In this document: in pieces, positions 5,730-55,700 of the stretch
Layout: the number at the start of each line of letters is the position of its first letter
Position numbering within the stretch: position 1 is the stretch's first letter
Assembly (NCBI RefSeq): GCF_963921235.1
Contig: NC_086108.1
Location: 69,380,001 to 69,444,000 of the forward strand
From: Mobula hypostoma
Lineage: Eukaryota
Direction: 5' to 3'
Length of the DNA stretch: 64,000 nucleotides
Made by a program: the position numbers and the translations under genes
The notes under the pieces: model-generated
The model's input: the letters and a program-made list of their open reading frames with translations, nothing else
Told to the model about the DNA's origin: nothing
Database searches by the model: none

Positions 5730-5978
5730 TTAAAAAAATAATGTGAGATTAAAATAAGACATAAGCTGCAATAATCCTCACAATTCATTCTTTTCCAAGT
5801 TCACAACCATTTTTCTTTGGGCTGATCAGAACAGGCAAGACAGAGACGTCACCCCAAGTCACCACTGTCAGTTTGTAGTGAGTATAAGAATGAACTCTTT
5901 CCTTTGTACAGTTGCTTTCCAGGAAGTGCTGTTCAAATTTTATCAGCCATTTATAGGGCAAAGAGTTTTTATATAATG

Positions 5979-6837
5979 TGTTACGAGAATACACATAAAA
6001 TTAAGATGTTTGCTGGCCTGGGCTAGCATCAGTGGCATCAGCAGTTGGTCTGCCACCTGCCCTCAGGGGAAGGAGAGATAAGGAACAATGGAGCAGCGTC
6101 TGGAGATGTGTAATGAAGGGATGTGGGAGGAAGAGCTGTCTGGAGCGGCTCCCCCCTTTGAAGCCTGAACTGTTTGAAGTGATGGACAGGCGATACCCCA
6201 GCAGGGGGATAAAAAGGGACAGGTTCGCTAAGACAGACACACACGCCACCCGAGGTAACGAGACCCTGGAAGCGGTGCGCTTCTCACGAGTGGGTGAGAA
6301 GTCCCAGACAACGACAAGGGTGGAAAGGTACGATCAGCGGGAACCCGGTGTGTGTCCGCCCTTGCCTGGGTGCCGGGTTCACTGCAGAGGATCGACCGCA
6401 TCTGGAGGAGGGGTCACAGTCGGTGACCTCAGGTGACATCACCAAGGACCCGCCCAAATGCTGTTTGTGAGCCATCTCGCTGGTCTGTGAGTGAAGCTGT
6501 GCTGAATGATGAGTTGTTCCTATTCTATGTCTCTCTTCCCCACCTTGTCCATCGCCATGACAACGATTACTGCGAACTGAACTACTAAACTGGACTGAAC
6601 TTTGAGTCATTTTGAAATTGGTCATTTACCCCTAGACAACGATAGAGCTTGATTGATGCTGTTATCTTAATTCTGTGCACATGTGTGTTTATCATCACTG
6701 AACTGTTGCATTTATTATCCTTTCGATTACTGTGTTGCTTGTTTCTGTAATAAAACTTTCTTAGTTCTAGTACTCCAGACTCCAACTGAGTGATCCATTT
6801 CTGCTGGTTTGGCAACCCAGTTACGGGGTACGTAACA
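5979..6837 (+). repeat. 5' LTR
   Basis: TG...CA ends with 7-bp terminal inverted repeat; AATAAA at 6749-6754; repeated at 9875-10733 (offset 3896). Confidence 0.97.
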
Positions 6838-6841
6838 TAAG

Positions 6842-6860
6842 TGGGGTTCTCGTCCGCGAT
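6842..6860 (+). promoter_or_regulatory. Primer binding site, tRNA-Pro-like (imperfect)
   Basis: TGGGGTTCTCGTCCGCGATTTTGAAC versus the tRNA-Pro 3' complement TGGGGGCTCGTCCGGGATTTGAAC; starts 4 nt after the LTR. Confidence 0.7.
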
Positions 6861-6936
6861 TTTGAACGCTAAATTTGGGACGGAGTAAATTGATTGGGTT
6901 AAAATTCCCGAAAGAAAGAAAAGACAAACAGCAGAA

Positions 6937-9702
6937 ATGGAGGTTGAGGAATTTATAAAGGCGCCGACCTTGGAGGCATTAGAGGATGCCAGGAAATCGG
7001 AATTGATAGCTGTGGCAAAACGGGTGAATCTTGCTAAGGTGAAGTCGACAATGAGGAGAGAGGAGATACACAGAGCTATTGTAGAGCACTATGTATCTAA
7101 AGGTGTGTTTCCCCAAGGTGAGCTGGGGGAGGTGTCTGTTGAAAAACCTGCTGGAGACGCAGTACAGGTACAGCTTGAAAAACTGAGACTCGAGCACGAG
7201 TTCCGGGTACGGCAGTTAGAACACGAAGAGAAAGAGAGGGACAGACAGATGGAGAGAGAGGAGAAACAGAGGGAAAGGGAATTTGAGCTGGAGAAGTTAA
7301 AGATAAGGGCCGAGCAGGGGCTCGTGCCGAACCAAGGTGGAGGGTTCCGGGCGACCCAGGAGGTTAGGCTGGTTCCCCCATTTGACGATACCGATGTGGA
7401 TCGGTACTTTCTCCACTTCGAAAAAGTAGCTATAAGTCAGGACTGGCCGAGGGATAAGTGGGTTGTCTTACTTCAGAGTGTACTGAAAGGGAAAGCCCAA
7501 CAAGCTTACTTCGCTTTATCCGCGGAAGATGCCCAGAAGTATGAGGTGGTGAAGGAGGCCATCCTCAGGATTTATGAGTTGGTCCCGGAGGCATACCGGC
7601 AGAGGTTCCGGAATGCGAGGAAGCGGTGGGACCGCACGTATTTGGAGTTTGCTCGTGAGATGCAGACATATTGTGAGCGTTGGTGCGCCTCGAAGGGGGT
7701 AGAGGGGGATTATGACAGACTGCTACAGCTGATCCTGATTGAGCAGTTTAAAGGTTGTGTCCCTGAGGGTATGAGACCCTACCTCGATGAGAAAGAGGCA
7801 GCCACGTTAGCCGCAACTGCTAAGTTAGCGGATGAGTATGCGTTGACGCATAAAATGAAGTTTGCCCCGAGTAAAGGCTACCAGAAGGGTAGTCAGGACG
7901 GCGGGGAGAGTCCGCCGGAAAAGTCAGAAAGTAAGCCGGGGACTAGTGAAAAGGATAAGGTAGACCGGGAGCAGCCTGGTAGGAAGTCTCCTGGGGTCGT
8001 CTGTTATAATTGTGGGAAAGTCGGACACTTTGCGTCCAGGTGCTTTGCCCCAAGGAAGGAGACGGGGAAAGGAAAAGCGGAAATTTTGAATGGCTGTATC
8101 GAGCTGTTAAGCGAACCGCTAGGGAAGGACAGGTCTGAAAAAGTCCAGGAAGGGCGCGAGAGGTTTATCTCGGCCGGACTGGTGTCAGTGAAGGAGAGGT
8201 TAAAACCAGTTCCAGTGCGGATCTGGAGAGACACGGGAGCGTGTCAGTCACTAATACTGAAGAGTGTATTAGAGTTTAGCTCAGAGACCCAGACTGGGGA
8301 GGTAGAGGTCAAAGGTGTTGGGGAAGGGACAGAGTCAGTCCCTTTGCACCAGATACATTTACAGAGCAACCTGGTCTCTGGACTAGTCACGATCGGGGTG
8401 AGGTCCGAATTACCGATGAAAGACGTGGAAGTCTTGCTCGGTAATGACATCGCCGGAGGAATCGTGTTCCCAGTCGTGAGATTGACGGGTCAGCCTGCCA
8501 GCATGGAGGCCCCGCCCGCGATGGTGAATTTGGCTGAAACATTTCTGCCAACCTTGTATGAGACAGGGTGTAGTGAGATAAGAGGTAGTGAGGGAGCTGG
8601 GACGGACGTAGCAGTAGCCAGGAAAGAATTTGTGCAGACGCAGGAGCGAGACGAGGGGCTGATGGTTTTGGCAGAGACCGCTCTCTCTGACACAGCCTTG
8701 ACAAGCTATTGTGCGGATGAGGAAGTGCTAAGGAAGAAAGGGAAATCAAGTACAGCATCCGCAGATGAGGAGTGGGGGGTGGTGCAAAAGAGTTACGGGG
8801 ATGAGGTTTTTAACATGGCCCACGAGGTACCCCCCGGTGGACATTTTGCGGTGCTGGGGGAAACAGTTGGTGGAATCATGAAAGAGATTTACCGGCTGCC
8901 CAGGGGGAAAAATGTTATTGATCATGACCGACGCGAACTGAGACGGTCACCGGCTTTTGATATGCTAACAAACCTAGTCGGTGTTAGCGTGGAAATCAAT
9001 GAAGCTAGGGGCCCCTTGATAAGAGGAAAAAACCATTTTGAAAAGATTAGGATGGGATCGGTCAGATGGGAGAAGGCTATTGTTTTGGCCAGGTCTACTG
9101 ATAAGGTCTCTCCCTTAATCCCCGAAGGAGTAATTAAACGACTCGCACCCATGTGTTTGATTGTCCCGAGGAAATGCAAAGAACTGGGACGTTGGGTTAT
9201 GTCTGTTAAAATAGGGCAGCCAAGTAAACAACACCCATATTTTTCGAGTAATTCAGTGACTAAAGGGCTGATGAACACAGAGGTGTGTATTGGCAATTTA
9301 ACACGGCTGTCTGAAGCCAGCTTGATAGTGAACCTTGGAAAAAATGAATTCGGCCACACGAATGTCACTTACCTGGGAATTGTGGTGACACAGGGGCAGC
9401 TGGCAGTGATACAAGCTACAGTGCAGGCTATCGCTGACCTCCCAACCCCGACAGACAAGAGGGCCCTCAGAAGGCTTTTGGAGATGGTGGGGTACTGCAG
9501 GAAGTTTTGCAATAACTCTGCGGTCAATACCCGTCCCCCTCCTACTAAGCCCTTGCGAGGGAAAATTGAGTCGGAATGGGACGACCCTTGTTGTTGTGGT
9601 CCGGGACAAAACCAAATGAGAGGTTACATTGGTCGCAATTCATCAGTGTTTTTGGCCACTATGAAGTTTGCTGAGTTGGAGCCTGGTCTAAGGGATTATT
9701 AA
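6937..9702 (+). CDS. Gag (coiled coil, SCAN-like capsid, CCHC knuckle)-aspartic protease polyprotein fused to degenerate IN/RT remnants, 921 aa
   Basis: YELVPEAYRQRFR...LILIEQF (SCAN-like), CYNCGKVGHFASRC (8002), RDTGA...LLGND protease, AHEVPPGGH (IN HH only), RT YxDD position reads CIGN (9286-9297). Confidence 0.9.
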   Translation: MEVEEFIKAPTLEALEDARKSELIAVAKRVNLAKVKSTMRREEIHRAIVEHYVSKGVFPQGELGEVSVEKPAGDAVQVQLEKLRLEHEFRVRQLEHEEKERDRQMEREEKQREREFELEKLKIRAEQGLVPNQGGGFRATQEVRLVPPFDDTDVDRYFLHFEKVAISQDWPRDKWVVLLQSVLKGKAQQAYFALSAEDAQKYEVVKEAILRIYELVPEAYRQRFRNARKRWDRTYLEFAREMQTYCERWCASKGVEGDYDRLLQLILIEQFKGCVPEGMRPYLDEKEAATLAATAKLADEYALTHKMKFAPSKGYQKGSQDGGESPPEKSESKPGTSEKDKVDREQPGRKSPGVVCYNCGKVGHFASRCFAPRKETGKGKAEILNGCIELLSEPLGKDRSEKVQEGRERFISAGLVSVKERLKPVPVRIWRDTGACQSLILKSVLEFSSETQTGEVEVKGVGEGTESVPLHQIHLQSNLVSGLVTIGVRSELPMKDVEVLLGNDIAGGIVFPVVRLTGQPASMEAPPAMVNLAETFLPTLYETGCSEIRGSEGAGTDVAVARKEFVQTQERDEGLMVLAETALSDTALTSYCADEEVLRKKGKSSTASADEEWGVVQKSYGDEVFNMAHEVPPGGHFAVLGETVGGIMKEIYRLPRGKNVIDHDRRELRRSPAFDMLTNLVGVSVEINEARGPLIRGKNHFEKIRMGSVRWEKAIVLARSTDKVSPLIPEGVIKRLAPMCLIVPRKCKELGRWVMSVKIGQPSKQHPYFSSNSVTKGLMNTEVCIGNLTRLSEASLIVNLGKNEFGHTNVTYLGIVVTQGQLAVIQATVQAIADLPTPTDKRALRRLLEMVGYCRKFCNNSAVNTRPPPTKPLRGKIESEWDDPCCCGPGQNQMRGYIGRNSSVFLATMKFAELEPGLRDY

Positions 9703-9862
9703 TAACACGTGTAAAAGGAACAGAAAATGTGATGACTGTCTGTCAAGGTGTTGACAATTTCAAATTCTCTGTATTAGCTAAATAACTGTTAAAGATGTAT
9801 ATTGTGTATGTATCAGATAATGTAGTCATGTTTGTAATTTTTACCTCCCGGTAAAAATCCTT

Positions 9863-9874
9863 AAAGGGGGGAAG
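9863..9874 (+). promoter_or_regulatory. Polypurine tract
   Basis: AAAGGGGGGAAG directly abutting the 3' LTR. Confidence 0.9.
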
Positions 9875-10733
9875 TGTTACGAGAATACACATAAAATTAA
9901 GATGTTTGCTGGCCTGGGCTAGCATCAGTGGCATCAGCAGTTGGTCTGCCACCTGCCCTCAGGGGAAGGAGAGATAAGGAACAATGGAGCAGCGTCTGGA
10001 GATGTGTAATGAAGGGATGTGGGAGGAAGAGCTGTCTGGAGCGGCTCCCCCCTTTGAAGCCTGAACTGTTTGAAGTGATGGACAGGCGATACCCCAGCAG
10101 GGGGATAAAAAGGGACAGGTTCGCTAAGACAGACACACACGCCACCCGAGGTAACGAGACCCTGGAAGCGGTGCGCTTCTCACGAGTGGGTGAGAAGTCC
10201 CAGACAACGACAAGGGTGGAAAGGTACGATCAGCGGGAACCCGGTGTGTGTCCGCCCTTGCCTGGGTGCCGGGTTCACTGCAGAGGATCGACCGCATCTG
10301 GAGGAGGGGTCACAGTCGGTGACCTCAGGTGACATCACCAAGGACCCGCCCAAATGCTGTTTGTGAGCCATCTCGCTGGTCTGTGAGTGAAGCTGTGCTG
10401 AATGATGAGTTGTTCCTATTCTATGTCTCTCTTCCCCACCTTGTCCATCGCCATGACAACGATTACTGCGAACTGAACTACTAAACTGGACTGAACTTTG
10501 AGTCATTTTGAAATTGGTCATTTACCCCTAGACAACGATAGAGCTTGATTGATGCTGTTATCTTAATTCTGTGCACATGTGTGTTTATCATCACTGAACT
10601 GTTGCATTTATTATCCTTTCGATTACTGTGTTGCTTGTTTCTGTAATAAAACTTTCTTAGTTCTAGTACTCCAGACTCCAACTGAGTGATCCATTTCTGC
10701 TGGTTTGGCAACCCAGTTACGGGGTACGTAACA
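9875..10733 (+). repeat. 3' LTR
   Basis: No difference from the 5' LTR seen by eye; ORF-track translations inside the two LTRs are identical. Confidence 0.97.
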
Positions 10734-10869
10734 TAAGGAACTGAAATTTACAATCTTCTGATTTGACTAAAAAGGTTCTACTACACAGATGTTTTCAAAA
10801 TGAGTGTAAATTTTGATGAAAGAACTTGCAGTGTCACAGATCCTTGGCTTTATATACAATAGAAGATGA

Positions 10870-17489: not shown

Positions 17490-18520
17490 CCACCTAGTGG
17501 TCACTTTTTTGGGCACACCTGTACACCTGCTCATTAATGCAAATATATAATCAGCCAATCATGTGGCAGCAACTCAATACATAAAATGACATGGACATGG
17601 TCAAGTGGTTCAGTTGTTGTTCAGACCAAATATCAGAGTGGGGAAGAAATGTGATGCAAGTGAGATCATGGCCTGAAACGTTGACTGTACCTCTTCTTAG
17701 AGATGCCGCCTGGCCTGCTGCATTCACCAGCAACTTTGATGTGTGTTGAGTGATTGCTGGTGCTGGATGGGGAGGTTTGAATATCTCAGAAGGGGCTTTT
17801 CTCCTGGGGTTTTCTTGCATCAACTCGGTGAAGGACATTCTTTGGTCGGCTCGAAACTTGATGATCTACCAGCACATGGAGATGTCCGTGGGAGAATGCT
17901 GCCGACTGGCACATTCTCGGCTGCAGGAGTATGTGCTGAGGGACGCACTGAAACTCGGTGCAGCCACTGCAAGGGCCCGGTGGGGAAGGACCACAGTATA
18001 GGTTTCTCCACCCATGGGAGTAGGAGGGGTCGGGTGGCGGGGAGTATACCCCTTAACAATGATGTGGTAAGGTGAACAACTGGAGTGCCACGTGGGTGGC
18101 CATAAGTACGGATATGTACTGACCATAATGGAAACGTATGTAAAGGATGGAAAGTTATTGAATGGTTTATTGTATATAATTTTATTTTTGAATAAAGTAT
18201 ATTTTGAAATTTTAAAAAACGGTCTCTAGAGTTTTCAGAGAATGGTGTGAAAAACTAAAAAACATCTAGAGAGCGGTGATTCTGTGGGAATGGGAATAAA
18301 GCCCCTTGCTAACAAGAGGTCAGAGGAGAGTAACCAGACTGATCAAAGCTGACAGGAAGGTCACTTTAACGCAAATAACATCACATTACAACAGTGGTAT
18401 GCAGAAGAGCATCTCTGAGTGCACATGTTGAACCTTGAAATGGAGGGGTTACAGCAGGAAAAGACCGTGAACATACACTCAGTAGCCTCTTTATTAGGTA
18501 CAGGAGATACAGTGGCCACC
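17490..18520. mobile_element. Tc1/mariner-type non-autonomous DNA element interrupted by Penelope and Tx1 fragments
   Basis: Ends resemble agtggccactttattaggtaca; internal sequence resumes after the inserted Tx1 A-rich tail. Confidence 0.55.
17746..18219 (+). mobile_element. Tx1/L1-like LINE 3' end
   Basis: ORF end SVKDILWSARNL...RLQEYVLRD...ARARWGRTTV*, then 3' UTR, AATAAA and A-rich tail; a second copy of this UTR is reversed at about 34005-34165. Confidence 0.65.
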
Positions 18521-22892: not shown

Positions 22893-23324
22893 TTATTTCA
22901 TTTGGTTCAAAATTGATAGCTGCTTTTTAAAGAGCCTGGATGTAAATTTGGTAACTAGGGAGAAAGAAAAGCACATAGTTTATACTTAACTAGCTTTTTC
23001 TTATTCTGGGAGAAGTTTGTCAGGAGTAGGGAGGATGTGGGATATCATTATTTTAGGTTGCTTTCAGTCACCAAAGGGAAATATATATGTAACCAAGAGC
23101 AGCAGTGATTCAAATGAACAGACTACGCAAAGCAAAATGGATGTAGAAATAGCTCCACACAATTTTTTGTCAGTTTGTCACCCTAACACTGTTAGTGAAA
23201 CTTGCATAAAGGTTGGAGCTTCACAGAGCAGTGTTGTTAATTTTCTGTGTGTAACACATTCCCCATTGATATGTTGCAAGTTAAATGCGTCACAGCAGGT
23301 GAATTACTTTCAGAGAGGACTCCC

Positions 23325-24070
23325 ACAGGCGGAGAGGGTCAGTAACTTTAAATTTCTGGGTGTCACTATCTCAGAGGACCAGTCCTGGACCCATCATATA
23401 AATATAATTGCAAAGAAAGCACAACAGCAACTCTACTTCCTCAGGAGTCTGTGGAGATTCAGCATGTCATCGAAACTCTTGGCAAACTTCTATGGGTGTG
23501 CAGTGGAAAGTGTGCTGACTGGCTGCATTACAGCCTGGTAATGGGACACCAATGCCTTTGAGCGGAAAATCCTACAAAAGATAGTGGATTCGGCCCAGTA
23601 CATCGCGGGTAAAGCCCTCCCAACCATTGAGCACATCTACATCAAATGTTGTCATAGAAAAGCAGCATCCATCATCAAGGATCCTCACCACCCAGGCCAT
23701 GCTCTTTCCTTGCTGCTGCCAGCAGGTAGAAGGTACAACTGCCTCAGGACTCGCACCACCAGGTTCAAGAACAGTTACTACCCCTCAACCCTCGGTCTCT
23801 TGAACAAAAGAGGATAACTACACCTATTCTGTTTCTGCTGTTCTCACAGTCGATGATCTCACCTCAAGGGCTCTTTATCTTGTTATTTCACGCTCTCATT
23901 ATTTATTGCTACTTACTTATATCTACGTTTGTACAGTTTGTTGTTCATTGATCCTGTTTACCATTACTGTTCTGTAGATTTGCTAAGTATACCCGCAGGA
24001 AAGAGAACCTCAGGGTTGTATGTGGTGACATGTATGTACTCTGATGATATATTTTACTATGAACTTTGAG
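23325..24070 (+). mobile_element. Rex1/Babar-type LINE 3' fragment
   Basis: VSNFKFLGVTISED..W..H...IAKKAQQQLYFLR, FYGCAVESVLTGCITAW, DPHHPGHAL..LLPAGRRY motifs. Confidence 0.8.
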
Positions 24071-24307
24071 ATCAAAGTGTCAGAGTGCAGTAAGCAACAG
24101 CTCCATCTACTGGACACAGTCACCAGTGGTTCAATGGATTCTGCAGTGATGGCAGTGCGGTTGGAGAGTGTTCGTGAAGGGGTCAGAGTGGCCCCAACAT
24201 AAAATCTGCAAAAGAATTGTTTTTTCTGTATGGAGGCCACAGATCATACTGAGAACAACAAATGGAGTATCGCTGTTACACATTTTAATGGTGTGGTTTT
24301 AAGCAGA

Positions 24308-27300
24308 TCTTTCAACATCATACAACCTCCTCCAGGTGACCCAGCCGGGGCTGATCAGACCCCAGCTTGTGTCCAGATGGCTAGCTACTTATGACTCCAT
24401 GGCTCCCCTCTTTTGAGCCACAGCCATCTTGGGGCCCTCTCTGCCGCATCGGTGGTACTGCGGATGGCTCTCCTCTTCCTCTCTCCCTCGATGCCCAAAA
24501 TGCTGAAGGCTCTAACTAAAGAACGGGCTACGAATCCCCTACAACCAACCTCCACTGGGAGACACCTCGCTCCCCATCCAGCCTGCTGACAGTTGCTGAC
24601 CAGTCCTGCGTACTTGGAGAGCTTCCTTTCAAAGGCCTCTTCCAAGCTATCTTCCCATGGGACTGTCAGCTCCAGCAGCACCACTTGCAGACTCAGACAC
24701 TAGGACAATGTCTGGTCGCAGGGTGGTGGCTGCGATATGGTTGGGGAGCTTCCGCTGCCCTTCGAGGTCCACCAACAGTTGCCAGTCCCTTGCAGAGGTC
24801 AGGATGTCTGCAGATGTTCTTTTGGTGGGTATTGGCTGCTCCCCAGCTCTGACAAAGGCAATGGTCTGCTTGGAGGGTCGGGACCGCTTCGCCCACTCAA
24901 CTCCTGCACTGACGGCTTCAGCGATGGTCTTCAGGACCCGATCATGCCTCCACCTGTACCGTCCCTCACCAAGTGCCCTTGCACAGCCGCTGAGGATGTG
25001 CTCCAGGGTTCCTCGCTTGGAGCACAGTGGGCACGCAGATGACTCTGCCTTGCCCCATGTGTGCAGGTTTGATGGGCTTGCAAGCACATCGTACACTGCC
25101 TGGATGAGAAATTGGATGCGGTGTAGTTCGGCTTTCCAAAGATCAGCCCAGGTCACTTTCCTTTCAACTACATTCTCCCATCTTGTCCAAGTTCCCTGTT
25201 GCTTCATTCCCACCGCCTTGCAGGCTCTCATCTCCTCTACTACTGCTCTCACCTCCTCCTGAACTAGACGACGCCTTTCCTTCCCTCTGGTGCCCATTTG
25301 GGGAGTTGGAAAGGATCCTAGCCCAGCTCGGCCTTGTGTGACCACTCCCACCAGCCTCCTGTGACGCAGCCTCGCCTCTGCCTCCTGAACAGCTTCCTCT
25401 GCCCTCCACTTCCTGCCAGTACTTACTTGGATCCCTGCTCTAGCCACCTTCGGGTCACTTGAGTCCCTATACTGTAGCACTTCTCTGGCTCTTGTTACCT
25501 TGAATTCTTCCTCCAAGGATTTGAAGGGCAGTTGCAGTTTGTTGTGGTGTCCATAGAGTGCGATGCTGCTCAGGCTCTTTGGCAGCCCCAGCCATCTCCT
25601 GAGGTGGTTGCTAACCCTCCTCTCTAAGGTTTCGACTGTCGAGATCTGAACTGCATCGACGAGGAGGGGCCACAGGATTCTGGGAAGAATGCCATGCTGA
25701 TATACCCAGGCTTTAAACTTCCCAGGTAGGCCAGACTTGTCCACAGATTTCAGCCAGCCATCCAACTCGGTGCAGGTTGCCTGAATGGATGTTGTGTCCC
25801 TTAAAGAGATGTTAAAAACTTTGCTTAAGCTCTTGACTGGCTTTTCTGTGATGGTTGGGATGGCTGTGCCTGCGATGCTGAACCGGAACTTGTTCTCCAC
25901 TTTCCCTTTCCTCAGCACCTTTGATCTTGATTTGGCAGGTTTGAAACGCATCCGGGCCCACTCCACCAGCTTTTCGAGCCCTTGCAGAATCCTCCGGCAG
26001 CCTGGGACTGATTCTGTGGTGACTGTGAGGTCATCCATGAATGCCCCGATAGGTGGTTGCCGTTGAGTGGAATTCATTCTGGGCCCTCTGCGCTCTGGTT
26101 CAGCAGACTTAGTGAGCATGTTCATGGCTAGGGAGAAGTGTCAGTGAGATAGTGCACCCTGTGATGATACCGATCTCCACCTTGTGCCAGGTTGACGTAA
26201 TTGCTCCTGAAGAGACCTTCATCCTGAAGTTGCTGTACTAATCAGCGATAAGGTCTCTGATTCTGCTGGGGACCTGATATTTGGTCAGTGTGAGCTGCAC
26301 CAGCTTGTGTGGAATGGAGCCATATGCATTTGCCAGGTCGAGCCACAACACTGACAGGTTGCCCTTGTTCTCTCTGGCCTCCCTGATGAGCTGTGTCACC
26401 ACACCGATGTGCTCCAGACAGCCCGGCATCCCTGAAATGCCACCCTTCTGGACTGATGTATCAATATAGGTGTTCTTTGCTAGGTAGGTGCACAGCCGGT
26501 TAGAAACTGCACTGAAGAAGATCTTCGCCTCAACACACAGCAGGGAGATGATGTGAAACTGATCTATCTGGGTGGCATTTTTCTCCTTCGGGATCCACAC
26601 CCCTTCAGCCACTCTCCACTGTTCTGGGATCTTCCCCCTTCTCCAGAAGATTCTCAGGATCTTCCACAGACGCAGCAGGAGTTTGGGGCAATTCTTGTAC
26701 ACTTTGTACGAGGTGTTGCTTGGTCCTGGAGCCGAGCTTGCCCTTGCTTTGCAGACAACCTCTCTGAGTTCCATTAGTTGCAGCTCTGACATGTCGAACT
26801 GCACATCCGGTTCAGGTGGGTCTATTAGGATGTCGCACTCTCCCAACTCCTGATCTCTTTCAGGTTCATTATATATCTTCTTCAGATGTTGGTCTATGTC
26901 TTCCTGCGAACAGGTCAGTTTCCCACTGCGCTTCTCCCCCAGCAACTCCTTGGTGAACTTGAAGGGGTTAGCGATAAAGGCAGCACGTTTTCGGGCCCTT
27001 TCACGACGCTGCCTCCAATGCCACTCTGCCCAGCGGAGGACCCTGATCTTCTTTCGTAGTATGCACATCAGCTGGGCCAAGCCAATGCGCTCCTCTTCTC
27101 CTGCCTCCTTGTATTGGGACTTCAGCGCTTTCATCTCCTGCCTGATGTTGTGGATCCTCAATGCTCTTCAGTTCTTCGAGTAAGATGTTTTGGAGCCTTC
27201 CTTCTCCTCTTCTCCGAACCGTTCAGCTGTGATACTGACAATAATTGTTGTCATGGCTTGCAGCTTCCTATCAACCCCTCCCTTCGCCGTTGCCTCCAGA

Positions 27301-27977
27301 ATTTGGTTAACATCTTCATCAAGCTGCTTCCACAGTGAAGTCATGTTAGCTGCAGGCCATTTGATCCGCCTCCTGTTAGACTTCATGTTAGAGGGATTCG
27401 TTTGCAACACTTGGAGGTTCCAGGCACTCTGGGGTGACTCCGGGCCTGGCCCCTCCTTCGTCTCACCAGGTTGGACACCTGCGCGTTGTGCTGCTCCTGC
27501 TCCCGCCAAACACTTCATCCTTGCTTGGTGGATCTTCAAGCCGCGATCGTTCTTGCAGATTTTGCCACATGCACACTGCTTCCTCATCGTCGTTTGTTCA
27601 TTGCCTGGGTCTGATGTCGTTGTGTCCATCCGACTGGGGTGCTCATCCTCCCCGCCTCTCAGGCACCCCTGGGGGTATCTTTTCCTTAGATTCACTGTAG
27701 CTTTTGTGGGGGTCCTCCTCTCAGAGGACACAGATTGGGTTGCCAGCCCGTTCTGCCCTGGTTGCCGTCTCACCGGGCTGTCACTGTCTCTCCAGTCGTC
27801 ACCACTCTTTTCGCGGTTGTCACCCAGTCTTTCCTGGTTGTCACTGATTAACTCAGGGTGTAAGCTGTGTACATACATCTACTGATGCTTCTGGACACAT
27901 CTTCAGTGACGTTCCTGGAATCATCGGGTGTTTCGGGTCTTTCAACATCATACAGCCTCCTCCAAGTGACCCAGCCG
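24308..27977 (-). mobile_element. HERO-like (RLE-type) non-LTR retrotransposon, near full length but disrupted
   Basis: N-terminal CxCGKxCKNxRGLKIHQARMKC finger, RT (WLDLANAYGSIPH, FMDD), CCHC (CPLC...LEHILSGC), RHD, RPDIV, ELTVPWE, RKLSKY, PVEVG; ORF split into 27168-27878, 26238-27161, 24647-26125 and 24385-24684; 40-bp terminal direct repeats. Confidence 0.85.
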
Positions 27978-29037
27978 TAGTAAATGCTGATTATTCTGTG
28001 AATAAATTACTGCTGTTGAGGTTGAACATTACATTGGAAATTTACTCTTAATGGCATCTGGGACGGTGGAGGGGTGTACCAAAATTAAATTGATGAGGAA
28101 GGTGAAATTCCCACTGCCAAATGCAAAAATAATTCCTGATATTCAATCAGCAGGACAACACCTTTTATCAGACATTGTGTGACTTTTCTAGCCCAAGGTG
28201 GCATAATATCAATTCAACTCCAGGCTGGTGATTCTGCAGGGAACCTCAGAGTTCAGTCTTCCCCAGCTAGTGAAGTGCAGGACCTGCTAAGTGACAGATG
28301 CCAGTCCATACCCACTTCTGCTCTATCACTGAACTCAGTGCACAGTCCAGTAGAATGAAGCTGGGAAATCTGCATCTTCTATCCTTCACAGGAGACCTAC
28401 TGCAGGATCTGTGACCCCATTCATGTGTATGAGGCTTCCTACCATAGAGACTGAATAATGTAAATAAAGTAAAATATATAATTAAATTTGCCTTATTTGT
28501 ATTTCCTAATCCTTTCCATTATTTCTGTAATATGGTTTTAATTATTTTAATTTTTTAATCTGCTTTTTCTTAAGTTACCTAAACAAGTTAATGGTAAGGC
28601 TCCATGGCATAAAAAAGGTCTCTGATTAGCTGTTAAACATTTCTGAACTACTTTTACAAACTGTTATAAAGTGACGTCAGCTCTGGCAGGAGGCAAGGCC
28701 TTGCATCACCAGACCAGCTTTTAAATGGGGTGAGCTGAATCCAACATGGTTCACAAAAATGTTCTAATCAAACATGCTGTAGTCACTCCAATGAGAAACT
28801 GGCATAAGCACCAGCTGATGGGCCACGAGGCTCGGGACAGACTTTGACTTTGAGTCACTCCAATGTTGCAGAAGAGATGGGCATATAATATGTCTTGCAA
28901 ATTAGATAAAAATTGTTACACTTACTTGCGTTGCTCAATCTACTTACCAACTTCATTTGTAAACTAATGGTAAGTTCACTCTTTGCAATACAGAAATAGT
29001 TGATAGCTACATCTCTTTGAAATAAGTCAGTGTGAAT

Positions 29038-33893: not shown

Positions 33894-36122
33894 CTAAAGA
33901 CAGGAGTCTCTTTAGTACAGTTAACATTCTTGCTATTACTTGTGCTACAAGAGCAATTTTTGATAAACTGTATAGAGTATTAAATCTTTAAACAATTTAT
34001 TTTAAGTTTTTTTTATGATTTCAAAATATACTTTATTCAAAAATAAAATTATATACAATAAACCATTCAATAACTTTCCATCCTTTACATACGTTTCCAT
34101 TATGGTCTGTACATAGCCATACTTACGGCCACCCACGTGGCACTCCAGTTGTTCACCTTACCACATCATTGTTGTAATTGCAGTTTGCTATATCACATAC
34201 ACCCTCAGCTATCTCTTTGTCTTATCAGTGCTTTTCACAGTTCTTTTGGACTCAGATCCAGTGGGTGTGTCAGATAATCCACAGGAAAGCTAATTTCAGC
34301 ACCTGGATGTTAATGTAACATTCTGAACCATTCTTCCATTGTATCAAAAGCCGTTCTCAGTTGCAATAGGATTTTACAGGATTTAATCTTTACCTATCTA
34401 AGATCACGCCTTGTTACAACTCTGACTGAAGTTCAAATGTATTTCACTCTTTGTAAATAATTTTGAGATGCCCTGAAGTGCTAAGGAAATGCAATTTCTT
34501 TTTATCTGAATCTTCTATAATATTATCAAACACAAATGACTGATGATTGTTCAAGATTAGAGCAGTCTTCATTTTTCTTTGTAAAGGATCCCAAAAATCT
34601 TAAACACAAGAGATTCTGCAGATGCTAAATTCCTCCAGCGTTTTGTGTTTGATCCCAAAAACCTGTTTGTTGAGCAAACAGAATATATTGCTGTTAATCA
34701 GTCCCTTCCCTAGTTAAAATTCACATGCTCATGAAGACGACCCACTGTTGAACTCTCACTAAGATAATTTGTGAAATGTGATAGTTTTTCAACATTCCCA
34801 TAAACACGAGGGCTGAACAATGAATCACAGTTCACAGGGCAGTGGTGTACAAAGGCACTTTAAAAAAAGGAGACTCGCAGAAATGAGATGGTGCATCACT
34901 ATGAATTAAATCAAGATCAGCTGACTACAGCAATGAAAATTAAACTGATATGACTTTCATTCAATGCTTAGAAAAGCAGTTTATTGGTTTAATGCAGTGA
35001 GTTTGTTCAAACTTATCTATCACAGTGTGAAAATACTCATCAATTCCAATCTCATCCCATATTGAATACCCCCATCCTATCGAGGGTGGATGAATCTTGA
35101 TGGTACGCCACACCCAGCCATCAGGCAGCAACATGCAGGACAATGACCTAGTCTCAGGCAGCATGTTGAAGGCCCTGTCACGAGAACATCCCTGACAGGG
35201 TTTGAAAGTTATACCAGTGCTGGAGCTGTGTATTGCATCAAAGTTATGAAGTGCTTAACTTTTTAAAAGGGGTTCTGACACTCAGAATCTAAAAATTATT
35301 AAATTTGTTCTAACTAAACTAAAAACAAAAGGCCAGGAAAGCTACAATAAAACACTCAAAGTTAGTACAGTAACTAACTTACCTTCCATATTCTGAGGGT
35401 GCAAATGAATAGGGAGTTCAGTCCAGACTAGAGAGAGAATTCCCCAACAAGATGGTGGGAAAAGCTCAGCGAGCCTAGATGTTATGTTCACTTACTGGGG
35501 GACCACACAAGTCTGGAATCTACTCCCATTCTGGTTGTTCCTTCAGGTTTGCCAGCCACAACCAAGAAAACTCAGCACATTGTGACATGGAGATATGCAA
35601 GTTAATTGCTTGGTCTTACAATTGGAGATCTGCTGTTATTTAATTTCGTGGCACTCACCCACTCATCAAGATCATGCACAAATGAGTTGATAAAATGTTT
35701 TATAAAATCACCATCTATGTTTATAAAGTTTATATATTTTAAATTGTAGTTAGCACTGGTTACAACTTTAAATGTAATTCTTTACCACATGTTATTAGGG
35801 TTGGAGGTCTAGCTGGCTGTCAAATATAGCTTGGCATTCATTACTCCAATGAATGTCCAGTGAGATTATCTGCATGGTGTAAACAACACTATGCCCCACA
35901 GTAAAAGGTGGACAATCTGTCAGGGAGAATTGCAGGAGATGTGAGAAGGCGTATCAGGTTTGATGGTATCATAATCTAGAGCTGCAGCTGGATGTTAACT
36001 TAGCAATCACTCCAGCGATAGCAACCACTGAGTATAGCCATTCAGTCACTAAAACCTGTCACTAACCTTAAAAAGCAGTGTTGCCCTCAAAAAAATACAA
36101 CTATTATATGCTTTTTTCTTAC

Positions 36123-37074: not shown

Positions 37075-37815
37075 TCATGGTGAAGGTCCACGAGTCAATA
37101 CTCATCAGAGGATCCAAGGTGGAGAGGGTTAATAACTTTAAATTCCTTGGCGTTATCATATCAGAGGATCTGTTCTGGGAACAGCACGCAAGTACCATTA
37201 CAAAGAAGGCACAACAGCGTCTCTACTTCTTTAGAAGTTTGCATACATTCAGCATGTCACCAAACACATTGACAAACTTCTACAGATGCACAGTCCTACC
37301 TGGTTGCATCATGACCTGACGTGGAAACACAGTGCCAGGAAATAGAAAAGTCTACAGAAAGAAGTGGATACAGCACAATCTATCACAGGCAAAACCCTCC
37401 CCACCACTGAGTCCATTTACACATAGCATCGCCACAAGAAAGCAGCATCCATCAACAAGGACCTCCACATCCAGGCCATGCTCTCTTCTCGCGACTACTA
37501 TAGGGCAGAAGGTACAGAAGCCTTAAGTCGCACACCAACAGGTTCACGAACGGTCATCAGAGTCCTGAACCGACACGGATAACTTCACTCAGCACAAATT
37601 AACCTACAGGCTCATTCTCAAGGACATTTTACAACTTGTGTTTTCAGTATCATTTTGTTTTAATTACACAATTTGTCTTTATTTGCACATTTGTTGTTTG
37701 TCACTCTTGGTTAATTTATGATTTTTCATAAATTCTGTTGCACTTCGCTATTTTTTTGTGAACGCCAGAAGGAAACGAATCTCAGGGTAACATACAGTAT
37801 AGGTATGCACTTTGC
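37075..37815 (+). mobile_element. Rex1/Babar-type LINE 3' fragment
   Basis: VERVNNFKFLGVIISEDL.W...TKKAQQRLYFFR. Confidence 0.8.
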
Positions 37816-43455: not shown

Positions 43456-45619
43456 CCACTAAGGAGCATCAGGCCATTGTCTCCCACACCATCACCGACT
43501 TTATCCGCTCAGGGGATCTCCCATCCACCGCTACCAACCTTATAGTTCCCACACCCCGCACTTCCCGTTTCTACCTCTTACCCAAGATCCACAAACCTGC
43601 CTGTCCTGGTTGACCCTTTGTCTCAGCTTGCTCCTGCCCCACCAAACTCATTTCTGCATACCTCAACACTGTTTTATCCCCCCTTGTTCAATCCCTTCCC
43701 ACCTACGTTCGTGACAGCTCTCACACTCTGAATGTTTTTGATGATTTTAAGTTCCCTGGCCCCCACCACTTTATTTTCACCATGGATGTTCAGTCCCTAT
43801 ATACCTCCATCCCCCACCAGGAAGGTCTCAAAGCTCTCCACTTCTTTTTGGATTCCAGACCTAACCAGTTCCCCAGTACCATCACTCTCCTCCATCTAGC
43901 GGAATTAGTCCTTACTCTTAATAATTTCTCCTTTGGCTCCTCCCACTTCCTCCCAACTAAAGGTGTAGCCATGGGCACCCATATGGGTCCCAGCTATGCC
44001 TGCCTTTTTGTTGGCTTTGTGGAACAGTCCATGTTCCAAGCCTATACTGGTACCTGTCCCCCTCTTTTCCTTCGCTACATTGACGACTGCATTGGCGCTG
44101 CTTCCTGCACGCATGCTGAGCTCGTTGACTTCATTAACTTTGCCTCCAACTTTCACCCTGCCCTCAAGTTTATCTGATCCATTTCCAACACCTCCCTCCA
44201 CTTTCTTGATCTTTCTGTCTCGATTTCTGGAGACAGCTTATCCACTGATGTCTACTATAAGCCTACAGACTCTCACTGCTACCTGGACTATTCCTCTTCC
44301 CACCCTGTCTCTTGCAAAAAATGCCATCCCCTTCTCGCAATTCCTCCGTCTCCGCCGCATCTGCTCTCAGGATGAGGCTTTTCATTCCAGGACGAAGAAG
44401 ATGACTTCCTTTTTTTAAAGAAAGAGGCTTCCCTTCCTCCACCATCAACTCTGCTCTCAAATGCATCTCTCCCATTTCACGCACATCTGCTCTCACCCAA
44501 TCCTCCCGCCATCCCACTAGGAATAGGGTTCCCCTTGTCCTAACCTACCACCCCACCAGCCTCCAGGTCCAAAATATAATTTTCCGTAACTTCCGCCACC
44601 TCCAACGGGATCTCACCACCAAGCACGTCTTTCCCTGCCCCCCCCTTTCTGCTTTCCACAGGGATCGCTCCCTACGCGACTCCCTTGTCCACATCCCCCC
44701 ATCCCTTCCCACCAATCTCCCTCCTGGCACTTAGCCTTGTAAGCAGAACAAGTGCTACACATGCCCTTACACTTCCTCACTCACCACCATTCAGGGCCCC
44801 AGACAGTCCTTCCAGGTGAGGCGACACTTCACCTGTGAGTCGGCTGGGGTGATATACTGCATCCGGTGTTCCCGGTGCGGCCTTCTATATATTGGCGAGA
44901 CCCGACGCAGGCTGGGAGACCGTTTCGCTGAACACCTACGCTCTGTCCGCCAGAGAAAACAAGATCTCCCAGTGGCCACACATTTTAATTCCACGTCCCA
45001 CTCCCACTCTGATGTGTCTATCCACGGCCTCCTCTACTGTCAAGATGAAGCCACACTCAGGTTGAAGGAACAACACTTTATATTCCATCTGGGTAGCCTC
45101 CAACCTGATGGCATGAATATTGACTTCTCTAACTTCCGTTAATGCCCCTCCTCCCCTTCACACCCCATCCCTTATTGGTTTATTTAATATATATTTTTTT
45201 AATTATATTTCTTATATTTTCCCCCTTTTTCTCTCTCTCTTTTTTCTCCCTCTATCCCTCTCACTATAACTCCTTGCCTGCTCTCCACCCTCCGGGCTCC
45301 CCTCCCCACTTCTCTTTCTCCCTAGGCCTCCTGTCCCATGATCCTCTCCCTTCTCCAGCCTGGTATCCCTTTTGCCAATCAACTTTCCAGCTCTTAGATC
45401 CACCCCTCCCCTCCTGTCTTCTCCTATCATTTTGGATCTCCCCCTCCCCCTCCCACTTTCAAATCTCTTACTATCTCTTCTTTCAGTTAGTCCTGACGAA
45501 GGGTCCTGGCCCCAAATGTCGACTGTACCTCTTCGTATAGATGCTACCTGGCCTGCTGCATTCACCAGCAATTTTTGTGCATGCTGCTTGAATTTCCAGC
45601 ATCTGCAGATTTCCTCGTA
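43456..45619 (+). mobile_element. Penelope-like element (RT + GIY-YIG endonuclease), 5'-truncated, with stops and frameshifts
   Basis: MDVQSLYTSIPH, GVAMGT..GPSYA, RYIDD; VIYCIRCSRCGLLYIGETRRRLGDRFAEH; pyrimidine-rich 3' region and hammerhead motif. Confidence 0.92.
45489..45524 (+). ncRNA. Minimal hammerhead ribozyme motif of the Penelope element (core mutated)
   Basis: AGTC-CTGACGA-A-GGGTC-CT-GGCCC-CAAA-TG-TC-GACT; the GAAA box reads CAAA. Confidence 0.7.
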
Positions 45620-51350: not shown

Positions 51351-52710
51351 CAAAGGTTCAAAGGTCCAATTTTGTTAATATTGCTAATTTAACCTATTTT
51401 ATGGATTGCTTCCGGCACTTTCTCAGCTGTTGCGATGCTGGCCTGTCCATTATCACTTTCAGCATTGGCTCTTCACAAGATGGTGTTAAGGTACCACAAG
51501 TTGCTCAGACAAAATCACTGTGTCTTTCTGTCAAGTCATCTAATGGACGATTGCTTCATAGAATGGTTGTCACACAGAAATACCAGTCACCGTGGTTTAC
51601 AATTCATCTCTATCAATGCTTGGTGAAATCCTTTCCAGTTGGATCATAACTAAGAAAAGACGCTGCTGATTTTCTCAATACAGGGGCAGAATGGATATCC
51701 TGAGACATCCACAATCAAAGTAAAATATACAAAAGGGGTTATAGTATTTAAAATCTCTCTCTATGCCATAAAGGCCAAATTAGAAAACATTTGTAAGTGG
51801 GCTGGGAGTGGAATGAGTGGACCAGGACACGCAAAATTTATGGTTCCATTTATTAGTGTGATCGTATCAACCACCCAGCACTAATGACACTGTTTATTAG
51901 CACAGCTAGCATGAGTTCAGATTTACTGATTAAATCCAGCCTGGCTCTCTTGTGGCGGGAGGCATTTTCACAAGCCTCAGGGACTTGTAGGAAGACTTGA
52001 CTGATCATGGGTAAAGAGAGGTCCCAGGGTCTTTGCAGTTCAATACTGGAGATCAGAGGGAAGAGGATGAGTAACCCTTTACCTAAAGAGAGACAAGTCA
52101 CCAAACCTCCTAGGCAAGCAAGAGCACAGGCAGGAGACAATTCAAGGAGTCACTCCCCCAGAAAGCGGATGCAGGGCAGAACAAGTCTCATGATCTCAGA
52201 AGTGGGGTTAAGGTCACGTGGAACATCTCCCACACATTACATCGCAGGCCTCAGACATCGGTCTCACCTACCAACAATCTCTATCAGGGTTCGGACCAAA
52301 TTTTCTATGCCTCACCAAACCATCACATATTTACCACAACAGCAGGCAGACATCATCATCTGCTGGCACACTTCCCTCTCTCCTGCAAAACAGTACGCTA
52401 AGTAGCAAAAGGTAACAGCCATCTGGCAGGGAACAAGCTAACAGCCCACCTTCCTCGAGGGCAAACCTATCGGCCATTGCAGAGTTACAGCTAGCATTGA
52501 AAATGATGCTGTGCTTTTTCGTCCTCCTTCATCTCACTTTTCATCCCCACCTTATTCCACCATCTGCAGATGCTGGGAGCCTGCATTTTTAATAGCCACT
52601 CTCCCCTCTCCATAGCACTGGCCCCCACCCGATGTCTTTGTCCCTTTAGGTCACTTTGGCAGCAGTGCACTCTAGGGTAGCTTGGGGAGGAATGATAAAA
52701 AAAAAATATT

Positions 52711-55700
52711 TTGGTTAAACAAGCAATAAAAGTTAAACAAGGGGGTGGGAATCAAATTAAAGCGGCTAGGTGTGAGGAGGTTAGTTCACAACAGAGGGAT
52801 GGGAACCAGTGCAGAGAGACAGAGGGGTGTAAAGTGAGCGTAGAAGCAAAAAGTACAAAGGGGAAAAGTAAAAGTGGCAGGCCGACAAATCCAGGGCAAG
52901 CATTAAAAAGGGCTAAGAGAGTTGTAAAAGAGTGCCTGAAGGCTTTATGTGTCAATGCAAGGAGCATTCGTAATAAGGTGGATGAATTGAAAGTGCAGAT
53001 TGTTATTAATGATTATGATATAGTTGGGATCACAGAGACATGGCTCCAGGGTGACCAGGGATGGGAGCTCAACGTTCAGGGATATTCAATATTCAGGAGG
53101 GATAGACACGAAGGAAGGGGAGGTGGGGTGGCGTTGCTGGTTAAAAAAGAGATTAACGCAATAGAAAGGAAGGACATAAGCCGGGAAGATGTGGAATCGA
53201 TATGGGTAGAGCTGCGTAACACTAAGGGGCAGAAGACGCTGGTGGGAGTTGTGTACAGGCCACCTAACAGTAGTAGTGAGGTCGGAGATGGTATTAAACA
53301 GGAAATTAGAAATGTGTGCAATAAAGGAACAGCAGTTATAATGGGTGACTTCAATCTACATGTAGACTGGGTGAACCAAATTGGTAAAGGTGCTGAGGAA
53401 GAGGATTTCTTGGAATGTATGCGGGATGGTTTTTTGAACCAACATGTCGAGGAACCGACTAGAGAGCAGGCTATTCTGGACTGGGTTTTGAGCAATGAGG
53501 AAGGGTTAATTAGCGATCTTGTCGTGAGAGGCCCCTTGGGTAAGAGTGACCATAATATGGTGGAATTCTTCATTAACATGGAGAGTGACGTAGTTAATTC
53601 AGAAACAAAGGTTCTGAACTTAAAGAGGGGTAACTTTGAAGGTATGAGACATGAATTAGCTAAGCTAGACTGGCAAATGACACTTCAAGGATTGACGGTG
53701 GATATGCAATGGCAGGCATTTAAAGGTTGCATGGATGAACTACAACAATTGTTCATCCCAGTTTGGCAAAAGAATAAATCAAGGAAGGTAGTGCACCCGT
53801 GGCTGACAAGAGAAATTAGGGATAGTATCAATTCCAAAGAAGTAGCATACAAATTAGCCAGAGAAAGTGGCTCACCTGAGGACTGGGAGAAATTCAGAGT
53901 TCAGCAGAGGAGGACAAAGGGCTTAATTAGGAAGGGGAAAACAGATTATGAGAGAAAACTGGCGGGGAACATAAAAACAGACTGTAAAAGCTTTTATAGA
54001 TATGTAAAAAGGAAAAGACTGATAAAGACAAATGTAGGTCCCCTGCAAACAGAAACAGGTGAATTGATTATGGGGAGCAAGGACATGGCAGACCAATTGA
54101 ATAATTACTTTGGTTCTGTCTTCACTAAGGAGGACATAAATAATCTTCCAGAAATAGTAAGGGACAGAGGGTCCAGTGAGATGGAGGAACTGAGCGAAAT
54201 ACATGTTAGTAGGGAAGTGGTGTTAGGTAAATTGAAGGGATTGAAGGCAGATAAATCCCCAGGGCCAGATGGTCTGCATCCCAGAGTGCTTAAGGAAGTG
54301 GCCCAAGAAATAGTGGATGCATTAGTGATAATTTTTCAAAACTCGTTAGATTCTGGACTAGTTCCTGAGGATTGGAGGGTGGCTAATGTAACCCCACTTT
54401 TTAAAAAAGGAGGGAGAGAGAAACCGGGGAATTATAGGCCGGTTAGCCTAACGTCGGTGGTGGGGAAACTGCTGGAGTCAGTTATCAAGGATGTGATAAC
54501 AGCACATTTGGAAAGCGGTGAAATGATCGGACAAAGTCAGCATGGATTTGTGAAAGGAAAATCATGTCTGACGAATCTCATAGAATTTTTTGAGGATGTA
54601 ACTAGTAGAGTGGATAGGGGAGAACCAGTGGATGTGGTATATTTGGATTTTCAAAAGGCTTTTGACAAGGTCCCACATAGGAGATTAGTGTGCAAACTTA
54701 AAGCACACGGTATTGGGGGTAAGGTATTGGTGTGGGTGGAGAATTGGTTAGCAGACAGGAAGCAAAGAGTGGGAATAAACGGGACCTTTTCAGAATGGCA
54801 GGCAGTGACTAGTGGGGTACCGCAAGGCTCAGTGCTGGGACCCCAGTTGTTTACAATATATATTAATGACTTGGATGAGGGAATTAAATGCAGCATCTCC
54901 AAGTTTGCGGATGACACGAAGCTGGGTGGCAGTGTTAGCAGTGAGGAGGATGCTAAGAGGATGCAGGGTGACTTGGATAGGTTGGGTGAGTGGGCAAACT
55001 CATGGCAGATGCAATTTAATGTGGATAAATGTGAAGTTATCCACTTTGGTGGCAAAAATAGGAAAACAGATTATTATCTGAATGGTGGCCGATTAGGAAA
55101 AGGGGAGGTGCAACGAGACCTGGGTGTCATTATACACCAGTCATTGAAAGTGGGCATGCAGGTACAGCAGGCGGTGAAAAAGGCGAACGGTATGCTGGCA
55201 TTTATAGCGAGAGGATTCGAGTACAGGAGCAGGGAGGTACTACTGCAGTTGTACAAGGCCTTGGTGAGACCACACCTGGAGTATTGTGTGCAGTTTTGGT
55301 CCCCTAATCTGAGGAAAGACATCTTTGCCATAGAGGGAGTACAAAGAAGGTTCACCAGATTGATTCCTGGGATGGCAGGTCTTTCATATGAAGAAAGACT
55401 GGATGAACTGGGCTTGTACTCGTTGGAATTTAGAAGATTGAGGGGGGATCTGATTGAAACGTATAAGATCCTAAAGGGATTGGACAGGCTAGATGCAGGA
55501 AGATTGTTCCCGATGTTGGGGAGGTCTAGAACGAGGGGTCACAGTTTGAGGATAGAGGGGAAGCCTTTTAGGACCGAGGTTAGGAAAAACTTCTTCACAC
55601 AGAGAGTGGTGAATCTGTGGAATTCTCTGCCACAGCAAACTGTTGAGGCCAGTTCATTAGCTATGTTTAAAAGGAAGTTAGATATGGCCCTTGTGGCTAC

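Follow-up and report, generated by a model that had tools for sequence, protein, structure and literature searches.

A candidate hammerhead-derived ribozyme across the terminal repeats of HERO-type retrotransposons

In Penelope elements, circles have been proposed, with over-unit-length reverse transcription leading to head-to-tail tandems (PMC4209133). The type-SGC hammerheads, which are not circularly permuted and cleave in vitro, come from metatranscriptomes, and none is reported from the genomes of known organisms (Eckert et al. 2023, PMC10085705). HERO elements, which belong to the retrotransposons without long terminal repeats (non-LTR) that have a restriction-like endonuclease (RLE), are mostly without a fixed target sequence (PMC4640811), and the title of Bouneau et al. 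2003, as given in reference lists (PMC7599744, PMC6274825), names the tandem structure of a Tetraodon element. Terminal and tandem redundancy in the HERO family is already known and is not new. The 2003 study reportedly proposed transposition as a partial tandem array. Here we describe a HERO-type element at 24308..27977 of the window, a 64,000-nt stretch of the Mobula hypostoma genome (NC_086108.1, positions 69,380,001 to 69,444,000), together with a conserved RNA fold with a hammerhead-like core at the ends of this element and its relatives. The relatives are 49 loci from a metagenome scan, and host-like sequencing runs are designated X. The parts of the window copy that concern its ends are as follows; helices H1 to H4 and stems I and III belong to the fold described below.

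24308..27977, minus strand: whole copy of the HERO-type RLE non-LTR retrotransposon, dead (stops, frameshifts) and shortened by about 74 nt at the 3' end
27938..27977, minus strand: 5' copy of the 40-bp repeat, with the end of H2, the H3 5' strand (27972-27968), the 5' strands of H4 and stem III, the NUH site and the 5' strand of stem I
24308..24347, minus strand: 3' copy of the 40-bp repeat, with the 5' strands of H3, H4 and stem III and the GUA; host DNA begins 13 nt later
27950..27953, minus strand: predicted hammerhead cleavage site of the 5' copy (GUA at 27953-27951, cut 27951/27950)
24321/24320, minus strand: predicted cut in the 3' copy, between these positions (GUA site)
27864..27977, minus strand: segment of the family's terminal repeat as present at the 5' end, about 114 nt long, with the fixed 3' terminus of the family at its far end (27863-27865)

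The two copies of the direct repeat reported by the original prediction, 24308-24347 and 27938-27977, were recovered as 40 nt with 38/40 identities (95%) at a spacing of 3,630 nt (E ~1e-11), and apart from this pair the element has no match in the window. The junctions carry neither poly(A) nor a microsatellite, and in the search for a target-site duplication (TSD) the longest word common to the two 60-nt flanks was 6 nt long and 30 or more nt off the junctions, in agreement with the earlier description of an insertion with no tail and no outer TSD. Both junctions occur with 0 differences in an independent run, X1 (record 1: 24120-24335; record 8: 27935-28200) and the right one occurs again in run X5 (record 24), which indicates that the structure is genomic; an assembly artefact was rejected on the same grounds. 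The repeat had been attributed to the element, with the 3' untranslated region (UTR) running on into 5' sequence. Both points hold in the relatives, where the repeat lies at the 3' ends as part of the conserved fold and the continuation is seen. The 40 bp in the window are what is left, after shortening, of a terminal repeat that measures about 110 nt in the family, and the 5' end of the window copy lies 27 nt upstream of the predicted cut.

In L001, L002, L003, L008, L009, L011, L012 and L021, the 3' UTR extends through the sequence corresponding to 27977-27866 of the window and then meets unique flank or the contig end, and the relatives end 88-91 nt beyond the predicted cut site. In the host-like runs, among 24 of 1,248 rows of the loose-end analysis, there is a pile-up at 27863-27865 of loose ends whose flanks are unlike, in 33+70+62 = 165 contigs of X1 and 47+53 = 100 contigs of X5. 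The same pile-up is present in X21 (7 reads) and in X12 (3+6), the contigs of a run guessed to be RNA, where circles and tandem DNA are not distinguishable. The family 3' end is therefore fixed and lacks poly(A); it lies 86-91 nt past the predicted cleavage site. Flank agreement at the 3' ends of host copies is only 0.37-0.39, as expected of a HERO element with mostly no fixed target sequence. The 3' end of the window copy is about 74 nt short of this terminus.

The ends had been described as circularly permuted; in the sense of free end positions, this is not supported, in view of the 165 and 100 contigs of X1 and X5, and freely permuted 3' ends were rejected from the relatives and the host runs alike. 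The redundancy measures 112 nt in L002, 90 nt in L013 and 40 nt in the window. The contig start cuts the repeats of both L002 and L013, and the usual redundancy is 90-112 nt or more (L013, L002) as against 40 nt in the window. Terminally redundant copies, a HERO trait, are represented by L002, L013 and the window. At the 5' side, L002 reaches 23 nt or more beyond the cut site in the upstream direction. The 5' copy of L013 has its start at +2 relative to the predicted site, a position that agrees with run-off there but may be an assembly end.

Summed contig depth over the element in X1 and X5 is about a thousandfold that of the flanks, which is not a copy number, and declines in the 3' to 5' direction, the pattern to be expected of a family with many copies and 5' truncation. 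Many joints from 24558/24559 to 27216-27252 were also seen in both runs, with raised depth at 27271-27544; these are probably non-autonomous derivatives of the HERO family with an internal deletion.

On printing the sequence after the end of the open reading frame (ORF) in 22 loci, a shared motif was seen by position alone. A covariance model matched 16/18 loci with at least 150 nt after the ORF end, 13 of those 16 having been in its training set; the misses were the distant outgroup loci L033 and L036. The strands follow in the order H1a, the H2 hairpin, H3a, H4a, the 5' side of stem III, the NUH site, the 5' side of stem I and a short linker, and then H3b, GAAAC, the 3' side of stem III, H4b, the 3' side of stem I, CUGANGA, H1b and a terminal hairpin. 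In the window they lie as follows.

24368..24377, minus strand: H1 5' strand, in the 3' UTR
24343..24367, minus strand: H2 hairpin, with the palindromic UGAUCA loop at 24357-24352
27930..27939, minus strand: H3 3' strand (equivalent of stem II, ending in C11.1) and the GAAAC block, with G12 at 27934
27900..27906, minus strand: CUGANGA block (C3-A9), with the 3' strand of stem I immediately before it
27890..27899, minus strand: H1 3' strand, beginning right after A9 and pairing 10/10 with 24377-24368
27875..27888, minus strand: small terminal hairpin, about 10 nt short of the 3' end of the family, a candidate start signal for reverse transcription

In 14 complete instances, a count that excludes the deleted or decayed L012, L038, L041, L046 and L047 and the partial 5' copies, the paired positions were 67/70 in stem I, 77/84 in stem III, 69/70 in H3, 68/70 in H4, 117/126 in H1 and 91/98 in H2, and for every one of these helices the count was reached by 0/2000 shuffles. 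When the strands are slid out of register, stem I pairs at 19-30/70 and stem III at 27-43/84. An anchored script served for the counts in stems I and III and in H4, because re-alignment to the RNA model kept the misregister of the S block (the segment with the cleavage site) made by MAFFT, and the H2/H3 register of L025 is off by one in the counts. In the untouched MAFFT alignment, H1-H3 are 89.9% paired, with two-sided changes at 17/23 pairs and 0/500 shuffles reaching this level. Stems I and III covary across the fish-type and the divergent relatives.

The two halves of the fold in the window are complementary in H1 (10/10), H3 (5/5), stem III (5/6) and stem I (5/5), and each half folded alone is no better than its shuffles (z -0.02, -0.55). 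The pairings named in the original prediction proved to be helices H2, H3 and H4 of this larger fold, with the correction that the 5' strand of H4 has T, not C, in the 5' copy; the version quoted was that of the 3' copy. Between H4 and stem III there is a kink-turn, with both GA steps in 11/14 by the usual kink-turn rule, and the H2 loop is the palindrome UGAUCA in 13/14. The most divergent fold, L015 1965-2110, keeps the same helix order with an almost wholly different sequence and is without the kink-turn and the palindromic loop; its closest protein is from Danio aesculapii. C-terminal residues of two HERO proteins (67% and 60% identical) align into the candidate ribozyme region of the window. 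Deletions of H1a/H2 or adjacent parts of the fold were observed in X5 (a 37-nt skip, window 24356-24394) and in L012 (3496-3510), and possibly reflect a reverse transcriptase (RT) skipping a hairpin.

The core of the fold consists of the NUH site, GAAAC and CUGANGA in the non-circular order site-GAAAC-CUGANGA (S-G-C), extending over the last part of the 3' UTR and the repeat, and these motifs are correctly spaced in 14/14 complete instances. G8 is present in 13/14, G12 in 12/14 and the remaining positions in 14/14, with variation at N7 (U in nine, A in four, C in one) and at H17 (C in seven, U in four, A in three). As in hammerheads, stem I lies between H17 and C3 and stem III is opened by A15.1-U16.1. 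An S-G-C descriptor, composed after the data were seen, gave 16 matches in 444,726 bases, of which 15 lie on the sense strand at the ends of HERO elements; the chance level is 0.45 per dinucleotide-shuffled set. Motif scans of viral contigs yielded 1 and 0 matches and those of prokaryote genomes 3; these four fail the RNA model and are attributed to chance.

It is at stem II that the fold differs. Direct pairing of the A9 strand with the G12 strand reaches 22/70, with the first pair in 0/14 and a total below the shuffle mean, and a canonical stem II was rejected on this count. The path from A9 runs instead through H1, H2 and H3 to G12 in a perfect four-way junction without unpaired bases, of which the core is the fourth arm. 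The G10.1-C11.1 pair next to G12 is supplied by H3 from another strand and is G-C in 14/14. By analogy with the core geometry of the known hammerhead fold (PMC11300833), H3 stacked on the G12-A9 pair would keep G10.1-C11.1 in place. Measured against type-SGC hammerheads, the S-G-C order and the short linker between stem I and stem II are present, and the uninterrupted block C is not. No Rfam family reached its gathering score in 12/49 loci or in 24000-28300 of the window; HDV, twister, pistol and hatchet folds were considered and set aside as well. The fold is not a canonical hammerhead, and from its sequence it is predicted to work like one. We regard it as highly probable that the HERO terminal fold is hammerhead-derived, and as likely that it actively cleaves.

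If so, a transcript with a whole ribozyme at both ends would cut itself twice, after 27951 and after 24321, to give an RNA of unit length, 3,630 nt in the case of the window copy. The ends of this monomer would remain paired through the ribozyme helices, together rebuilding the whole fold, and could then be ligated into a circle or be crossed as a nick by the RT (template jumping). Target-primed reverse transcription would begin 86-91 nt past the cut, just beyond the terminal hairpin, and would mostly stop early, leaving 5'-truncated copies. Copying more than once round would occasionally generate terminal repeats and partial tandems and rebuild the upstream half of the ribozyme. In the window copy, it would have run 27 nt past the cut at the 5' end, and about 74 nt at the 3' end would have been lost or never copied, leaving the 40-bp overlap.

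The positions of the ends bear on this scheme. As the fixed 3' end is downstream of the cut, an active 3' ribozyme would strip it from a linear RNA, and the template would then have to be a religated circle, nicked ends crossed by the RT, or uncut RNA. Furthermore, 5' ends that lie upstream of the cut, by 27 nt in the window copy and by 23 nt or more in L002, cannot come from a simple cut-and-run-off template. We lean slightly towards the full model of ribozyme, circle or nick, and more-than-unit copying. The stronger proposal, that an active novel hammerhead cuts and circularises the 3.6-kb mRNA of HERO elements in fish and other animals, which would make them the first autonomous RLE long interspersed nuclear elements (LINEs) to use a ribozyme-made circle with internal priming at a fixed site, is put forward tentatively. 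The earlier interpretation, a copy of over unit length from a circular or tandem template, is still the best reading and is strengthened by the hammerhead-like core, which that interpretation did not include; as a whole it is partly supported.

Several points weigh against the ribozyme and circle. An interruption between A9 and G10.1 departs from the known rule for hammerheads: no insertion of more than 1-2 nt is known at this place according to the paper on type-SGC hammerheads, which takes block C to be always unbroken (PMC10085705), and in the pseudoknot hammerhead A9 still leads to G10.1-C11.1 (PMC11300833). G12 is A in 2/14 instances and G8 is U in 1/14, probably because these copies have decayed. 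The searches presupposed the CUGA and GAAAC anchors and the NUH rule, the registers of H1, H3 and H4 were optimised for each sequence, and the 14 instances stem from about three lineages, so the independent changes are far fewer than the cells counted. Folding z-scores are modest (L001 -3.2; the other three -1.9, -1.4 and -1.5). Lowest-energy folds recover the nested helices best in L001, and even there the 3' strand of stem I is held in a competing hairpin. As to the ends, the 5' ends of L002 and L013 are contig ends, and L006 and L010, in which the 3' UTR passes into the 5' UTR, may be real tandems or assembly loops. Cleavage, ligation and the circle themselves are steps that we infer.

One alternative concerns the window copy only. 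Its short 3' end could have arisen after an ordinary insertion, when about 74 nt were deleted together with some of the flank; we consider this about as probable as priming within the repeat during the insertion itself. Elsewhere the 3' end of the family is fixed, no second pile with unlike flanks was seen at 24308 among the 24 of 1,248 rows, and the copy is old enough to have gathered stops and frameshifts, all of which agree with a deletion; either origin fits the family model.

A second possibility is that the ribozyme works like the 5' ribozyme of R2, freeing the RNA at its 5' end only, with the 3' copy uncut or slow, so that the template is linear. Repeats and tandems would then result from jumps of the RT, off the 5' end of one RNA and onto the 3' region of a second, or from the copying of long, uncut partial-tandem donors. 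Template jumping by the R2 RT is established, and the palindromic H2 loop, UGAUCA in 13/14, could pair two RNAs. The start of the L013 5' copy at +2 from the predicted site, albeit a contig end, and the competing hairpin, which could keep the 3' copy inactive, also suit a linear template. However, the two copies within an element are 92-99% identical (L013, L002) and no off-switch confined to one copy is seen, while the 5' ends upstream of the site in the window and L002 demand an extra step. We regard a linear template as unlikely.

Less likely still, the fold could be non-catalytic, a structure at the 3' end that binds protein or carries a promoter and that may be the relic of a hammerhead. 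The redundancy would then come from read-through transcription of partial tandem arrays, with the promoter supplied by the 3' end of the upstream copy, and from subsequent truncation of 5' ends at random. Proteins are often bound by kink-turns and conserved loops, stem II departs from the canonical form (direct 22/70), Rfam detects no hammerhead, and a tandem structure stands already in the title on the Tetraodon element. Against this, all catalytic positions and both flanking stems keep an exact hammerhead geometry across proteins that are only about 50% identical, and variation is found only at positions that are free in hammerheads. The chance rate of the core is 0.45 per data set. That the 40-mer is a TSD of host DNA has only its place at both ends in its favour and is next to impossible, being refuted by the homologous loci, as the same sequence lies in a conserved fold at the 3' ends of unrelated HERO loci.

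The coding and 5' parts of the element lie as follows.

24391..27713, minus strand: broken single ORF with a C2H2 finger, RT, CCHC, RHD and a PD..E..K nuclease motif
27575-27510, minus strand: N-terminal C2H2 finger of the broken ORF
25033-24983 and 24949-24941, minus strand: CCHC knuckle and RHD, respectively, of the broken ORF
27168-27170 and 26238-26240, minus strand: stops in the ORF, which also has frameshifts near 26136 and 24688
27690..27863, minus strand: conserved structured 5' UTR, with two-sided change in 15/39 predicted pairs among 5 sequences

The 5' UTR is conserved from fish-type to divergent elements; its hairpins covary, and a purine-rich block of 12 nt in it does not change. 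A conserved and structured 5' UTR would suit an uncapped RNA, and this one is a candidate cap-independent translation element.

From its sequence, the window element is a HERO/Zebulon-type RLE non-LTR retrotransposon, with both RT and restriction-like nuclease. A 497-aa piece of its protein gave 298 matches among 7,999 scored candidates, with teleost proteins nearest at 83-86% (its subfamily lies nearest to proteins of Limanda, Conger and Entelurus), and is 67% identical to AAN12398 of Tetraodon and 60% to BAC82598 of Takifugu. In a tree of 36 rows, built without an R2, R4 or NeSL outgroup, the window falls in the starred 19-row clade (99/100) with AAN12398, BAC82599 and BAC82598. We take AAN12398 and BAC82599 (Tetraodon) and BAC82598 (Takifugu) to be Zebulon/HEROTn and HEROFr. 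The domain motifs and the tree bear out the HERO-like RLE clade named in the original prediction, and the best relatives with a solved structure in the PDB are R2 proteins (E 6e-39). A Penelope-like element was rejected, since the motifs are those of an RLE, not of a GIY-YIG nuclease with a telomerase-like RT, and R2 proteins are the nearest solved structures.

For 24650-26140, scattered teleosts provide the closest named proteins (81-86%), and a single 90% protein cluster covers flatfish, hake, mackerel, pipefish and Aldrovandia. The other repeats of the window presumably resemble those of cartilaginous fish. Horizontal transfer of the HERO element is possible. No relatives of the protein were found in viral contigs.

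Other mobile elements surround the insertion. Immediately to its left, 22990-24070 is the 3' part of another LINE (with a match to Pfam ALKBH8_N), of which a 70% copy lies at 37117-37554. An LTR retrotransposon at 5978-10737, with two 864-bp repeats that are 100% identical and a 937-aa ORF with SCAN and CCHC, is probably very young, and an 81% copy of its 864-bp repeat lies on the opposite strand at 56938-57812. The open LINE ORF of 1,012 aa at 52699-55737, with an apurinic/apyrimidinic (AP) endonuclease and RT, is presumably CR1-like, and an RT fragment at 43614-44177 we take to be Penelope-like. An inverted pair of 165 bp (18055-18219 and 34009-34173) is 96% identical.

There appears to be no earlier description of the candidate ribozyme, of its topology, a four-way junction with a split core, or of the link to the fixed 3' end. 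No literature linking HERO to a ribozyme was found, with subscription papers and Repbase Reports largely outside the coverage, and a search on type-SGC hammerheads returned only the original paper, PMC10085705; by term search, Danio, Branchiostoma, Metazoa and Actinopterygii are absent from its supplement. The comparison also took in PMC3088659, PMC9004415, PMC7650587, PMC2684134 and bioRxiv 10.64898/2026.07.22.740005. If the model is true, this hammerhead topology breaks the rule that was used to enumerate the possible permutations, and a non-circularly permuted hammerhead is present at high copy in animal genomes, where Rfam and the standard descriptors have missed it. It would also give a mechanism for the tandem structure reported for the family in 2003, and would mean that the use of a ribozyme and a circle evolved convergently in Penelope elements and in an R2-related LINE. 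Work is under way to develop R2-type proteins for gene insertion (PMC13580325), and an RLE enzyme capable of internal priming on circular RNA would therefore be of practical interest.

Compared with known systems, the HERO elements of Tetraodon and Takifugu have the same single ORF with C2H2, RT, CCHC and PD-(D/E)xK nuclease as the window copy, which differs in its subfamily, near the Limanda, Conger and Entelurus proteins, and in a 3' repeat cut to 40 bp. R2 shares a related RT-RLE protein, and R2 and L1Tc share the processing of the transcript by a self-cleaving RNA (PMC6765202), which in HERO is predicted; their ribozyme, however, has a hepatitis delta virus (HDV) fold and is found at the 5' end only, without terminal redundancy, and R2 is specific for 28S rDNA. 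Penelope-like elements and retrozymes carry a hammerhead within direct terminal repeats (PMC4209133; PMC7229834), as is predicted for HERO, but theirs are type I or III circular permutations in GIY-YIG or non-coding elements, whereas HERO is an RLE LINE whose candidate ribozyme has a different topology and whose 3' end is fixed. In the pseudoknot hammerhead, helix II can be replaced by another helix with the core unchanged (PMC11300833), but there A9, G10.1-C11.1 and G12 close one loop, with the ordinary block order and no four-way junction. The type-SGC hammerheads share with HERO the order site-GAAA-CUGAnGA, a short linker between the stem I and stem II sides, and pseudoknotted stems. Their block C is unbroken, whereas in HERO A9 and G10.1 lie on different strands joined through the four-way junction, stem III has a kink-turn, and the motif resides in animal retrotransposons.

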